From positions 1 through 33,177 of IMG/VR virus record IMGVR_UViG_3300010005_000037: DNA of 33,177 nucleotides. One strand, written 5' to 3'. Made by a program: the position numbers and the translations under genes. Source of the stretch: a virus. Lineage: Duplodnaviria; Caudoviricetes. The notes beneath the pieces are model-generated. The model had not been told where the DNA came from, ran no database searches, and saw only the letters and a list, made by a program, of their open reading frames with translations. This document shows positions 1 through 33,177 of the stretch, one piece after another (within the stretch, counting starts at the first letter, position 1; each line of letters starts with the position of its first letter).

Positions 1-969
1 TCACTGGCGCCGCTCGTGCGCCGCCCGGTAATGCGCTTCGCGCCACTTCGCGGGATCGATTTGCGGGATTGCGTCGACCATCCAATCAGGATCGACCACG
101 TTCCCCTTGCCGAACACTATGCGGGTAGCGGCGCCCTTGGCCGGCGGCGAAATCTCCCGAACGATATCCCCCGACGACAAGCGTCTGGCGTTTTCGCGGA
201 GCAACTGCTTCGCGATTTTGTGGCCGGAGCCATCCGGTGCACCCATCGAGCCATACGGCTCATCCTCCGTGAAGCTTGTGTCGCCCTCATCGCCGTTGTG
301 GTCCAACTCGTCGCCGTTCGGCTCGCACTCATCATCACCTTCGCGGTCATCACCGGGCTCATCCTTGGTGCAGCCCATACCGTGGCCGGTCCACCCAAGC
401 TCGGGCTCTCCGTCTTCAACATACCATTGCTTCGGGTCGGTTTCGGTGCGCCGCACTTGGTTGATTTCCTCCGTCAATCCAAGGGATGGTTCGCCGCTCT
501 CTTCGGCGACCATGCCTTCAACGTCGCCGTAGCCGCTTTCCTCGACCTCCGCATTTTCCCCGGCGTCGTCTTCGCCATCAGTACGGGACCCGGCGCCCCA
601 AGCGTCTTGGCCGCGCGACCTGTCATGGTAGAGAACTCCCGACCGGCCCCAAGGACTTTCAAGCGATGCTGGATGCCTTTCGATAGAGCCGAGCGACGGT
701 TCGGCGTCTGCGTTGTCCTCAAGGTCGCAGTCGTCGGCTTCGCGGTCGTCATGGTCCATGTCGGCCCGAAGCGCCGACGGTCCCCGGTCAGGCCACCCCA
801 GCGAGGGTTCGTCATCGCCCGTCGCTTCGATATCGGGATCTGGGCTCATGGCGTCGAGCAGGTCAATCAGCCGCTCGATCGAGGTTGAAATGGCAAGGCG
901 GTCATTCTCCGCCACGGTCAGGAAGATAGCTCCGTCTGCACGGCGCATTTCAGGTTCATGGATAGTCAT
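1..969 (-). CDS. Highly acidic hypothetical protein with EPxLG repeats (322 aa)
   Basis: ATG at 969 with CCAGGACGGA RBS upstream and TGA at 1-3. About a quarter of residues are D/E. Motifs DEPSLGW, AEPSLGS, GEPSLGL, GEPELGW. Confidence 0.85.
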   Translation of the reverse strand: MTIHEPEMRRADGAIFLTVAENDRLAISTSIERLIDLLDAMSPDPDIEATGDDEPSLGWPDRGPSALRADMDHDDREADDCDLEDNADAEPSLGSIERHPASLESPWGRSGVLYHDRSRGQDAWGAGSRTDGEDDAGENAEVEESGYGDVEGMVAEESGEPSLGLTEEINQVRRTETDPKQWYVEDGEPELGWTGHGMGCTKDEPGDDREGDDECEPNGDELDHNGDEGDTSFTEDEPYGSMGAPDGSGHKIAKQLLRENARRLSSGDIVREISPPAKGAATRIVFGKGNVVDPDWMVDAIPQIDPAKWREAHYRAAHERRQ

Positions 970-976
970 GGTTTTT

Positions 977-1010
977 CCGTCCTGGTTTGAAACCGGCTTC
1001 TCACGGCCGG
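977..1010 (-). promoter_or_regulatory. C4 RNA target site a2/b2 overlapping the RBS of the acidic protein gene
   Basis: Minus strand reads CCGGC-CGTGAGAA-GCCGG hairpin (1010-993), then CCAGGACGG (985-977), 7 nt before the ATG. Both parts are complementary to the a' and b' segments of the RNA at 1062-1143. Confidence 0.8.
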
Positions 1011-1061
1011 CGGGATGTGTGCCACGGTGGCATACATTCCTGTCTCGGCGGGCGGCGCCGA

Positions 1062-1143
1062 AGCCGGGAGTTGAGAACCTGCCAGGACGACAGGCCGAAC
1101 GTTTTTAAGGTTGCCCTCTGGACATAGCGTCCGCTCCCGGCCA
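1062..1143 (-). ncRNA. C4-like (P1 C4 / P4 CI type) antisense RNA
   Basis: Outer stem GCCGGGAG/CUCCCGGC. Inner arm CGGACG/CGUUCG capped by AGG-GCAA-CCU. Hairpin GCCUG-UCGUCCUGG-CAGGU carries the b' loop, followed by the a' segment GGUUCUCAA. Complementary a/b sites lie both upstream and downstream. Confidence 0.8.
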
Positions 1144-1251
1144 TATTCGACCGAGTTGGACGCCCGCCAAGGCGCGCCATATGCGCACAGAAACCCGCCA
1201 AGGTTTCCTACGCGTTCAGGTCAACGCCTCGCCAAAGGTGGTCGACCTATA

Positions 1252-1275
1252 GTCCTAGTCCGGGTTCTCAAGCCC
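1252..1275 (-). promoter_or_regulatory. C4 RNA target site a1/b1 in the 5' leader
   Basis: Minus strand GGG-CTTGAGAA-CCC hairpin; TTGAGAACC is a perfect 9-nt complement of a'. Followed by CTAGGAC, which pairs with b' GUCCUGG with one G-U. Confidence 0.78.
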
Positions 1276-1281
1276 ACGGAC

Positions 1282-1310
1282 ACGATGCCTTTATTCGGTT
1301 AAAAATTCAA
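1282..1310 (-). promoter_or_regulatory. Putative sigma70 promoter of the C4 RNA / acidic protein transcript
   Basis: cTTGAAT-17 nt-CATCGT. The -10 is weak, but the predicted start falls at the a1 hairpin. Confidence 0.45.
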
Positions 1311-1368
1311 GCATGCCCTTTCGGGGGCGTAGCTTTGCCCGCGCTCAAGCGGTGGCGCCTGAACCCCC

Positions 1369-1396
1369 TTGCCTGATTCGGCCGTTGTGGTAGCCT
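1369..1396 (+). promoter_or_regulatory. Putative sigma70 promoter of the HNH gene
   Basis: cTTGCCT-16 nt-TAGCCT with extended -10 TG. Predicted start ~1403, at the a3 hairpin. Confidence 0.55.
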
Positions 1397-1403
1397 GTGG
1401 ATA

Positions 1404-1427
1404 GGCCGTGAGAAGCCCAAACAGGAC
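1404..1427 (+). promoter_or_regulatory. Third C4 target site (a3/b3) over the HNH gene RBS
   Basis: GGCCGTGAGAAGCC (1404-1417) is identical to the 14-nt core of a2. It is followed by CAAA-CAGGAC (b site 1422-1427), 8 nt before ATG 1436. Confidence 0.75.
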
Positions 1428-1435
1428 TACCCAAG

Positions 1436-1831
1436 ATGATACCCGCGACCGTTCGCAACCGCATGTCGGCCAAGCGCCGGCACCATATCTTTTCTGAAAA
1501 TTGCACCGGCCACAACGTCGCGCCGTGCTGCCTGTGTGGCCAGCCGATCCATCGGCACAACGATCAATGGATCATTGAACACAAGCGCGCGCTCGGGTTG
1601 CTCGGCCCGGACCTCAACACCAACTGTGCGCCAGCTCATGAGACGTGCCGCAGGCTCAAGGACAAGCGCGACCTTGCTATGATTGCGAAGGCGAAGCGGC
1701 AGTCCGAGGCGGGCGCGAAAAAGGAAAAGCCGGCTCGAGGTTTTCAAACCCCGGCCGGCGTGGCGTTCGACTGGCGCTTGCGGCGCTATGTGCGGGTCAG
1801 CGCTTCTGCCGACGTTCAGCTTCCATCGTAG
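1436..1831 (+). CDS. HNH endonuclease
   Basis: CxxC (CLC-G), WIIEH, G.D.NTN, AHETC..K pattern. Basic C-terminal tail. AGGA RBS. Confidence 0.8.
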   Translation: MIPATVRNRMSAKRRHHIFSENCTGHNVAPCCLCGQPIHRHNDQWIIEHKRALGLLGPDLNTNCAPAHETCRRLKDKRDLAMIAKAKRQSEAGAKKEKPARGFQTPAGVAFDWRLRRYVRVSASADVQLPS

Positions 1832-26999: not shown

Positions 27000-27248
27000 A
27001 TGATGATCGTTTGGGACGAACCGAAGCGCCTGACCACCCTTGATAAGCATGGGCTGGACTTCGCGTCCTTGGATGAGGCGTTCTTCCTGAACGCGGTCAT
27101 CATCCCCGCCAAGGCGAACCGGTACTTTGCGATTGGTCGGCTGGCGTACAACACCGTCGTTGTCGTGTTCGCCTACCTCGGGACCGAAGGTCTTTCGGTC
27201 ATCACCATGAGGCGGGCGAACGCCAAGGAAAGGAAGCTCGTAGAATGA
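27000..27248 (+). CDS. brnT: BrnT-family toxin (ribonuclease)
   Basis: WDEPKR...KHGLDF, R...IG, VITMRRANAKERK. Confidence 0.9.
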   Translation: MMIVWDEPKRLTTLDKHGLDFASLDEAFFLNAVIIPAKANRYFAIGRLAYNTVVVVFAYLGTEGLSVITMRRANAKERKLVE

Positions 27249-27544
27249 TCCGCAAGAAGAAGAATTTTGAGCCCGGTCGCGGCTACACCAAAGAGGACTG
27301 GCACGAGGCCGATATCCCAGCGCTCACGGATGAGCAGCTTGCGCAGGCGAAGCCGTTTGCCGAGGTGTTCCCCGATCTGGCCGCGAAGATGGAAAAGAAC
27401 GTCGGCGGGCGCCCGCCCTTGGAGAAGCCGAAGAAGGCCATCAATATCCGGCTCGACCAAGACGTCATCGAGAAGTTTCGCCGCACCGGTCCAGGCTGGC
27501 AGAGCCGCATCAACGAGGCGTTGAAGGCCGCGAAGGTCGGTTGA
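27245..27544 (+). CDS. brnA: BrnA-family antitoxin
   Basis: GRP...K..INIRLDQDV.E.FR.TGPGWQSRINEAL. ATGA overlap with the toxin. Confidence 0.92.
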   Translation: MIRKKKNFEPGRGYTKEDWHEADIPALTDEQLAQAKPFAEVFPDLAAKMEKNVGGRPPLEKPKKAINIRLDQDVIEKFRRTGPGWQSRINEALKAAKVG

Positions 27545-31408: not shown

Positions 31409-31544
31409 GTACCTTTCATCGGTTTAGCGGCGTCTCGTTTTGTTCATGTAATCATCAATGTCAATTGATGTTACCATACAGCAGTCACTTGCAATGCGTA
31501 AAGGCCTGTGCGCAGTATCCCCGACTTTCTGGGGATAATTGGTA
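31409..31544. promoter_or_regulatory. Divergent lysis/lysogeny control region with inverted repeats
   Basis: AT-rich. CATCAAT-gtca-ATTGATG (31453-31470) overlaps a minus-strand TGgTAACAT extended -10. TATCCCC-N8-GGGGATA at 31516-31537. Confidence 0.65.
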
Positions 31545-31958
31545 ATGGCTGCTGACAAAGAGAGCACGATGCGGCGCGTTTACGTGCTTCCGACGGAGCT
31601 CGTGGACCGAATCACGGCCTTCCAGGCCGACATGAAACTTCAATCCGAGGTGGAGGCGGCGCGCCGGCTTCTGGATGAGGCGCTTAAGCACCGTGACAAC
31701 GCGGAAGCGATAACGCGCCGGTTCATTGAACGCCTGAAAGAAACGAGAATGATGTCCGACATTGCGAAGGACGTGCTCGTCGGTCACCCGCTGATTGATC
31801 AACTGAAGATCAATACCGGTTCGATCTCATTCGGCATGACGACCGGGGATCAAGTTACGGTCTTCCAGGACGGAAGCGCGATGCTGCGGGACCGCAACAA
31901 GCAGCAATTCAGCATCAACACCGAGGGCGTGAAGACCACGGATGAAATCCCGTTTTAG
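31545..31958 (+). CDS. Ribbon-helix-helix (Arc/CopG-like) regulator, probable repressor, ending in DEIPF
   Basis: RRVYVLPTELVDRI...SEVEAARRLLDEAL. Divergent from the early operon and co-oriented with the integrase. Confidence 0.7.
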   Translation: MAADKESTMRRVYVLPTELVDRITAFQADMKLQSEVEAARRLLDEALKHRDNAEAITRRFIERLKETRMMSDIAKDVLVGHPLIDQLKINTGSISFGMTTGDQVTVFQDGSAMLRDRNKQQFSINTEGVKTTDEIPF

Positions 31959-31968
31959 GGAGGGCTGA

Positions 31969-33177
31969 GTGTCAGTACGCAAGCGCAAATGGACTAATCC
32001 CAAGGGCGTCGAGAAAGAGGCGTGGGTAGTCGACTATGTGGACGGCAAGGGTATCCGCCGCCTAAAAACATATGCCCGGAAAAAAGATGCCGATGCCTTC
32101 GCGGCAACAGCAAGCGTCGAGGTGCGTGACGGTGTCCACGTCGCCGATAGCGCCACCGTGACGGTTCAGGAGGCGGCCGCCCTTTGGCTGAAGAGCTGCG
32201 AAAGTGCAGGCTTGGAGCGGTCAACGACCGACCAGTACAAGCAGCATGTCAGCTTGCATATAGACCCGACGATCGGCGCGACGAAGCTGTCCAAGATCAC
32301 AGTGCCGGCGGTGCGCGCGTTCCAGGAGCAATTGCGCGAGGGCGGCAGATCGGCGGCGATGATCAAGCGCGCCACCGTCAGCCTCGGCAGTATCCTGTCC
32401 GATGCGCAAGAGCGTGGGCTTGTGGTGCGCAACGCGGTGCATGAGATGTCGAAGCGCCGCGGCAATAGTGCCGGCAAGGCTGAGAGGCGCCAGAAGGCAC
32501 GGCTGCGGTACGGTGTGGACATTCCGACCATGGCGGAGGTCAGGGCAATCCTGGCGGCTGCAGAGGGCCGCTACCGATCGTTTCTGATCACGGCCATTTT
32601 CACCGGCATGAGGGCGTCCGAATTACGCGGGCTCTCTTGGGCCGATGTCGATCTCGACAAAGCACAGATCCATGTCCGGCAGCGGGCCGACAAATACCAT
32701 GTCCTCGGAATGCCGAAGTCGGATGCTGGACAGCGGACAATCCCGCTCACGCCGATGGTCGTGAACACGCTGAAGGAGTGGCGCCTTGCCTGCCCCAAGG
32801 GGGATCTCAATCTGGTCTTCCCCAATGGGGAGGGCAACGTCGAGTGGCACCAGAACATCATCAAGCGCGGCTTATGGCCGACACTGATCAAGGCCGGCGT
32901 CACCGTCCCGACTGACGAGAAGGATGAGCAGGACAATCCGATCATGGCCGCCAAGTACACTGGCCTACACGCCCTGCGGCACTGGTTTGCGTCGTGGTGC
33001 ATCAATAGCCGGGTTGATGGTGGGCTCGAGTTGTCACCAAAAGCGGTCCAGGCTCGCATGGGGCATTCGAGCATTCAGATCACGTTCGACACCTACGGCC
33101 ACCTGTTTCCGGCCACTGATGAAACCCAGGCGTTGGCCGACGCTGAAAGCCGCCTGATGGCCGCCAACGCGACATAG
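31969..33177 (+). CDS. int: Tyrosine recombinase / phage integrase
   Basis: TGMRASEL (R), PKS (K), HALRH (HxxR), MGH (H), DTYGH (Y). GGGAGG RBS. Confidence 0.96.
   Translation: MSVRKRKWTNPKGVEKEAWVVDYVDGKGIRRLKTYARKKDADAFAATASVEVRDGVHVADSATVTVQEAAALWLKSCESAGLERSTTDQYKQHVSLHIDPTIGATKLSKITVPAVRAFQEQLREGGRSAAMIKRATVSLGSILSDAQERGLVVRNAVHEMSKRRGNSAGKAERRQKARLRYGVDIPTMAEVRAILAAAEGRYRSFLITAIFTGMRASELRGLSWADVDLDKAQIHVRQRADKYHVLGMPKSDAGQRTIPLTPMVVNTLKEWRLACPKGDLNLVFPNGEGNVEWHQNIIKRGLWPTLIKAGVTVPTDEKDEQDNPIMAAKYTGLHALRHWFASWCINSRVDGGLELSPKAVQARMGHSSIQITFDTYGHLFPATDETQALADAESRLMAANAT

Follow-up and report, generated by a model that had tools for sequence, protein, structure and literature searches.

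A C4/sRNA-Xcc1-like antisense RNA between divergent genes for an acidic and an HNH-like protein in a viral genome, with a probable second target transcript

Introduction

Can a small antisense RNA of the C4/CI type, a kind described in the accessible parts of the literature as acting on sites in its own operon, also control a gene transcribed away from it? The question is raised by the left end of a virus record of 33,177 nt, a prophage of a soil bacterium, which was analysed in its entirety and is called the window below. The window ends on the right with an integrase gene (31969-33177, PF00589) and also encodes primase-polymerase, capsid, internal virion and lysis genes, as judged from Pfam and PHROG matches. 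At its left end, two divergent genes encode an acidic protein and an HNH-like protein, both with named homologues mostly in Mesorhizobium, Aminobacter and other rhizobia; region 900-1900 gave no blastn match in annotated phages or plasmids. A first-pass annotation made from the letters of the sequence had proposed that one antisense RNA silences both genes here, as a candidate new system.

Results

Organization of the divergent module

From left to right, the module comprises the following features.

1..969, minus strand: acidic low-complexity protein of 322 aa (25% D+E); ORF with 84 homologues
978..1010, minus strand: a2b2 target; hairpin 1010-993 exposing GUGAGAA, then b2 CCAGGACG (985-978)
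1045..1061, minus strand: GC-rich hairpin directly 3' of the RNA, from folding; kept in a second phage
1059..1146, minus strand: C4/sRNA-Xcc1-like antisense RNA of 88 nt, with closing stem P1, P2 and P3
1147..1249, minus strand: short, repeated TTGGCG hairpins in the leader that separates b1 from the RNA
1250..1279, minus strand: a1b1 site of the leftward transcript, at its 5' end; UUGAGAAC exposed by a hairpin and followed by CUAGGAC
1282..1310, minus strand: predicted leftward promoter, TTGAAT-17-CATCGT, with its TTG at −40 from the a1 core
1369..1396, plus strand: predicted rightward promoter, TTGCCT-16-TAGCCT, with its TTG at −40 from the a3 core
1403..1428, plus strand: a3b3 site; hairpin GGC-CGUGAGAA-GCC, then CAGGAC
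1436..1831, plus strand: HNH-type endonuclease-like protein of 131 aa (phrog_338, E 7e-6)

The pattern TGAGAA-N5-25-AGGAC occurred four times in the 33,177-nt window, every time inside 979-1427, while shuffled windows contained 0.26 such sites on average and four were reached in 0/100 shuffles. Three of the occurrences, at 979-1003 (−), 1252-1270 (−) and 1409-1427 (+), correspond to a2b2, a1b1 and a3b3, and the fourth, at 1072-1088 (+), is the antisense of the RNA itself. The RNA carries the complementary boxes a' (GGUUCUCAA) at 1079-1071, in the junction, and b' at 1091-1082, in the loop of P3. The b sites overlap the AGGA/GGA of the ribosome-binding regions of both genes, b2 (985-978) being placed at that of the acidic gene, and the a3 hairpin has 14 nt identical to a2.

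Much of this layout had been read correctly in the first-pass annotation. Both ORFs, at 1-969 (−) and 1436-1831 (+), were confirmed, as were the b-type sites at the two ribosome-binding regions; the TGAGAA…AGGAC sites are real, with three of them in 979-1427 for 0.26 expected by chance, and the small RNA said to carry their complements could be delimited to the 88 nt at 1059-1146 (−), with a' and b' located. The two back-to-back promoters fared less well: both carry a CTTG −35, which the part of the literature available to us gives for Agrobacterium, and both have the offset of the RNA family, with the −35 TTG 40 nt before the a-core for a1 as well as for a3 and at −40/−41 in 46/69 family members, but a generic sigma-70 scan called neither of them.

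Some smaller elements accompany these features. The GC-rich hairpin at 1045-1061 is likely a processing or termination element. The leader hairpins at 1147-1249 (−) carry a TTGGCG/CTGGCA motif, present in two to three copies in 63/72 leaders of the RNA family, whose role is perhaps in protein binding or processing. A short GC palindrome lies at 1317-1329, just upstream of the leftward −35 box, and a similar one was seen by eye before the promoter in many members of the family.

A branch of the C4/sRNA-Xcc1-like RNAs

Relatives of the RNA were collected with a core pattern that gave 22 viral and 100 metagenome matches, hence 123 copies with that of the window. Removing 22 copies without the closing stem and 24 duplicates left 77 distinct copies, including three (L136, L149, L162) that are possibly mis-parsed and are still in the counts. 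An alignment of 46 of them recovered a four-helix structure with 99.1% of cells paired and eight pairs showing two-sided changes, a number as high as this being found in 0/500 shuffles; because the cap and a portion of P1 are imposed by the pattern used for the search, these alignment columns were unable to vary. The RNA folds into three stems: b' is presented by the loop of P3, a' falls between P3 and P1, and P2 is long, interrupted by an internal loop and topped by a cap hairpin. For P2, the single-sequence minimum-energy fold was dropped and the covarying fold preferred.

The model built from the alignment (R1) gave 93.9 bits for the window RNA, which was in its training set, and matched 31/151 genomes in the genus of one Mesorhizobium genome (G001); it misses distant relatives such as L051. 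No Rfam family reached its cut-off in the window, and region 900-1500 gave chance matches only. Some relatives scored against sRNA-Xcc1 (RF02221) at 46.2 (L051), 32.0 (L123), 31.1 (L048) and 26.0 bits (L179), for a cut-off of 53. The RNA is a member of an alphaproteobacterial C4/sRNA-Xcc1-like family that remains below every Rfam cut-off.

The 77 copies carry 18 a-cores and 43 box combinations. The own upstream site (a1b1) was matched in 67/72 RNA-family loci, for 6/4273 with foreign boxes, and the own downstream site (a2b2) was exact in 57/77 copies and within one mismatch in 72/77, for 24/4586 with foreign boxes. With boxes that covary across 43 combinations, the first-pass view of a C4/CI-like antisense RNA targeting a1b1 and a2b2 was thus well founded. 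Matches of the sites on the opposite strand at −115 to −141 were discarded as an artefact of a palindromic a' box. In 66/72 loci, b2 starts 13-18 nt before the start codon, with a mode at 14-15, and this fixed distance points to a block of translation initiation.

The acidic family provides the first gene after a2b2 in 28/69 RNA-family loci, the others having varied genes at this place. Considering the loci with at least 800 nt downstream, this family was behind the RNA in 29/62, without the HNH arrangement. The acidic protein has a conserved N-terminal helix motif, 'SIERLIDLLDAMxPDPDLE'; it gave no Pfam or PHROG match, and in the Atlas it fell in hypothetical clusters only, with no fold and a model of pLDDT 0.44. 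Its position alone, by analogy with P1 as covered in the accessible part of one source (PMC8201110), would suggest an antirepressor.

Several family members depart from the common layout. One prophage, in a record of 35.7 kb (G011; L110 and L114), has two RNA copies with the same b' and different a', each with its own a1b1. An extra a-type hairpin lacking a b site stands just before a2b2 in L046, L047, L048, L049, L113, L115 and L125. In L304 and L310, which have the RNA and a1b1, our script found no a2b2, and a small unnamed gene family lies behind.

A third site before the HNH-like gene

The CAGGAC of a3b3 lies 14 nt before the HNH start codon, within the mode of the RNA family (14-15). We found the same layout in a second phage (L014 = L015 = L111, two records, G017), with aligned blocks 69-75% identical to the window and HNH four-fold third positions agreeing in 10/18 cases. 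Between the two phages, a3b3 kept 25/26 nt, a2b2 32/34 and a1b1 30/31, whereas the spacers kept 13/33, 15/54, 3/6 and 2/7. The last value is that of the spacer between b3 and the HNH start, and the distance from b3 to the start codon is 14 in both phages. The RNA differs by one base between them and its boxes are the same. The rightward promoter kept 23/30 nt, for 15/54 in the gap between the promoters, and a search with the pattern of this promoter led, outside the window, to two records of this second phage and to no other. The a3b3 identity between the phages could in part be due to a recent transfer of the complete cassette.

The background for a hairpin site with foreign boxes was 4 matches in 405 record scans (0.0004 per kb). 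With this background and 25/26 nt kept in the second phage, the site first noticed at the HNH start is non-random and conserved. In terms of pairing, b3 engages 6 nt (−11.4 kcal/mol) and b2 8 nt (−16.6), with −11.6 for b1; since b3 pairs more weakly than b2, repression of the HNH-like gene may be weaker.

This third site is rare. Its geometry, a hairpin together with the start-codon distance, was absent from the other 61 of 63 RNA-family loci having at least 500 nt upstream; L161 and L200 had loose third-site matches without this geometry. Nor was a3b3 found in 8 further genome loci or in 30 genome and 3 viral loci, these sets partly overlapping. A scan for orphan a/b sites in 20 whole viral records and the window, in which the a' box was mis-set for G006, returned two weak matches (G013, G019) beyond the two a3b3.

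The HNH-like gene and its neighbourhood in related genomes

The HNH-like protein gave no Pfam match and no PDB sequence match. In the alignment, its invariant residues are C31/C34, E48, N61/N63/C64 and H68. Its model has a pLDDT of 78, and the top fold matches are HNH domains, all at E >= 0.2; the best one in Foldseek is the Gme HNH nickase, with a probability of 0.92 but an E of 0.2. Given the PHROG match, the conserved residues and these fold matches at E >= 0.2, the HNH assignment is probable but weak.

Homologues of this gene were found in 40 loci, or 36 after removing two without upstream DNA and two duplicates. The first-pass annotation had suggested looking for co-occurrence of the RNA and the two genes in homologous prophages, and the RNA was usually lacking: model R1 found the RNA in 1/36 HNH loci and had no match in 35/36, and the gene found upstream of HNH in 17/36 encodes an HTH_3/HTH_31 protein (17 of 19 candidates tested, many of the matches falling below the Pfam curated cut-off). 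Eight other HNH loci had no C4 or sRNA-Xcc1 match. The HTH gene overlaps the HNH start in 10 loci. A tRNA gene, likely the attachment site, is present within 4 kb upstream in 21/36 loci and within 260 nt in 8/36, and in these eight no regulator lies between the tRNA and HNH.

Adding L036, recognised by eye, to the 17 gave 18 HTH-type loci. An acidic partner gene is nearby in 5/34 HNH loci examined and is divergent in 4 HTH-type loci; over 65 aa, the acidic genes of the HTH-type locus L010 and the RNA-type locus L014 share 74% identity. A leftward ORF common to RNA-controlled operons was present in 8/18 HTH-type loci, or 7 without L028, which was dropped because its sole match was a translation across a tRNA. 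The same two flanking genes, acidic and HNH, thus enclose, depending on the phage, either an HTH gene with further genes or an RNA cassette. From what is known of their family, the HTH genes would repress their neighbours. The divergent module likely adjoins the prophage end, and the RNA cassette likely replaced a protein repressor there.

Two other loci of the window may be mentioned. Between the terminase region and a NusG-like gene, the segment 26970-27544 (+) contains a BrnA antitoxin gene (27245-27544, PF14384), and the gene before it likely encodes a BrnT-type toxin. An unnamed gene (phrog_16979, 31539-31958, +) separates the excisionase operon from the integrase and may be the main regulator; in the second phage, its place is taken by a different small gene.

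Discussion

Comparison with known systems

The order promoter, a1b1, RNA, a2b2, gene is that of the immI region of P1/P7 (C4, RF01695), and the RNA resembles C4, as presented in the portion of PMC2864571 that we could consult, in its three stems, in the placement of b' (P3 loop) and a' (junction), and in its AUGG-type 5' end. As in C4, the upstream and downstream sites change with the RNA (67/72 and 57/77 with the own key). However, the window had no RF01695 match at the cut-off or at E <= 10, and 41 related loci had none at E <= 1-5. The window RNA also differs from C4 by a longer P2 with an internal loop, by the gene behind it, which encodes the acidic protein without Pfam or PHROG match and not icd/ant (C4 regulates Ant expression according to the available part of PMC8201110), and by a second target on a divergent transcript.

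With sRNA-Xcc1 (RF02221), the RNA shares the layout of P1, P2 with internal loop and cap hairpin, and P3. In contrast to it, the window gave no RF02221 match, the best relative staying at 46.2 bits, below 53, and the part of PMC12189769 accessible to us treats sRNA-Xcc1 as a virulence-linked trans sRNA and not as an a/b switch. A third relative in design is the CI RNA of P4 with seqA and seqC, a processed RNA pairing with sites upstream and downstream (PMC4825925, in the part available); processing of the window RNA is predicted. CI causes termination of transcription, whereas the downstream site is here at a fixed distance from the start codon, which points to a translation block. Finally, the RNA cassette has the same position, between acidic-family genes and HNH, as the presumed XRE (HTH_3) repressor of related prophages, but the latter is a protein acting on DNA while the RNA is predicted to act on two mRNAs.

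The "new system" announced by the first-pass annotation has therefore to be reduced to one of its parts. The switch itself is one branch of an already known kind of RNA control, working like C4 and lying outside RF01695 and RF02221 by score; what is new is the probable second, divergent target transcript. The literature that we searched, mostly without subscription papers, contained no description of this RNA branch or of a divergent C4 target.

A proposed repressor of two divergent transcripts

In our view, the 88-nt RNA is probably an antisense repressor of the C4/sRNA-Xcc1-like type that prevents translation of the acidic protein, encoded on its own transcript, as well as of the HNH-like protein, encoded on the opposite one, and that takes the place of the XRE-type repressor found at this spot in related prophages. 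We observed the RNA structure, the covariation of a1b1 and a2b2, the spacing and conservation of a3b3, and the HTH gene at the same position in relatives; the way in which the switch would operate is drawn from P1 C4 and P4 CI. The RNA would be cut from the leftward transcript, as is P4 CI, would first be held by a1b1 and would then accumulate. At both start regions, the a-loop would be bound by a' and the ribosome-binding site by b'. The two genes would thus be expressed briefly after infection, or when the RNA is lost, and be silent in the lysogen.

As a3b3 has both the promoter distance of a1 and the start-codon distance of b2, it probably originated from a second cassette with the same boxes, whose RNA was deleted when its a1b1 and a2b2 repeats recombined. 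The complete scenario, in which an XRE repressor gene gave way to a C4-like RNA cassette that regained two-way control by acquiring a second target leader, with its own promoter and a3b3, and that now represses two opposite transcripts, is more tentative, and we would give it slightly less than an even chance.

Alternative explanations

The site before HNH could instead be mainly a decoy, with a rightward transcript that titrates the RNA and so induces the acidic gene while hardly affecting HNH. Like a1b1, a3b3 is at the 5' end of its transcript, b3 is about as weak as b1 (−11.4 vs −11.6 kcal/mol), and action in trans is described for IsrK, which is structurally homologous to P4 SeqA (PMC4825925, in the part available). 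A pure decoy has no need, however, for a distance from b3 to the start codon equal to the a2b2 spacing, and this distance amounts to 14 nt in the two phages though the intervening spacer differs (2/7 kept); we regard this explanation as rather unlikely. Much the same holds for a non-functional relic of a duplicated cassette, the action of the RNA then being confined to its own operon, as is usual for C4. The rarity of a3b3 (two phages), its identical boxes in both and the simple deletion origin at hand would all fit a relic, but not the conservation of 25/26 nt next to spacers that keep 3/6, 2/7 and 15/54, nor that of the promoter boxes, and we find it unlikely.

The first-pass annotation had raised, among other possibilities, an RNA-antitoxin or abortive-infection module, in which the RNA would hold an HNH toxin in a type I-like manner with the acidic protein as its inhibitor. 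The HNH motif is intact, a target site covers the HNH ribosome-binding region, and the acidic partner is nearby in 5/34 loci. Against this idea, 35/36 HNH loci lack a match to the RNA model, leaving 1/36 with the RNA; in 8/36, the distance from a tRNA to the HNH start is at most 260 nt and includes no regulator; and the acidic family follows RNAs in 29/62 loci without the HNH arrangement, which is restricted to two phages. A dedicated nuclease inhibitor is likewise disfavoured for a family that heads 28/69 RNA operons. A complex prediction for the HNH-like and acidic proteins (score 0.00, mark 0.32) counts for neither side. We thus judge the toxin module improbable. Operators for a DNA-binding protein, in place of RNA targets, would account for the 14 identical nt shared by a2 and a3 in opposite orientation around divergent promoters. 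Against this, the sites lie downstream of the promoters, over ribosome-binding regions, and vary together with the unpaired boxes of the RNA over 43 combinations, and this last explanation appears highly improbable. The repressor of both transcripts remains our preferred reading.

If the second target works, RNAs of the C4/CI type can build up small regulons through a simple deletion, and within one and the same neighbourhood of genes such an RNA can substitute for a protein repressor. The RNA family is common (31/151 genomes) and has at least 43 natural box combinations, and thus offers a set of candidates for orthogonal switches of translation in rhizobia.

A related RNA in traM leaders

A related RNA was detected in the traM leader of pTiC58, in the traH-traM gap (L318:1282-1371; 43.4 bits, E 3e-9), with its own matching a1/b1 upstream. 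The same set includes L306, L309, L313, L316 and L317, TraM (PF09228) being recovered in 3/3 loci tested. No Rfam family covers this RNA, and we found no paper describing it in the literature searched. QfsR was considered as its identity and rejected, since it lies between atu6119 and atu6120. It may be an unrecognised RNA switch acting on the control of plasmid conjugation. Present in plasmids of the Ti and RepABC types, it is perhaps of greater importance than the divergent target described above. In 3/6 loci, a complement of a' and of the P1 strand was seen by eye just before the traM start, and the traM leader of L309 matches 339 plasmid records.
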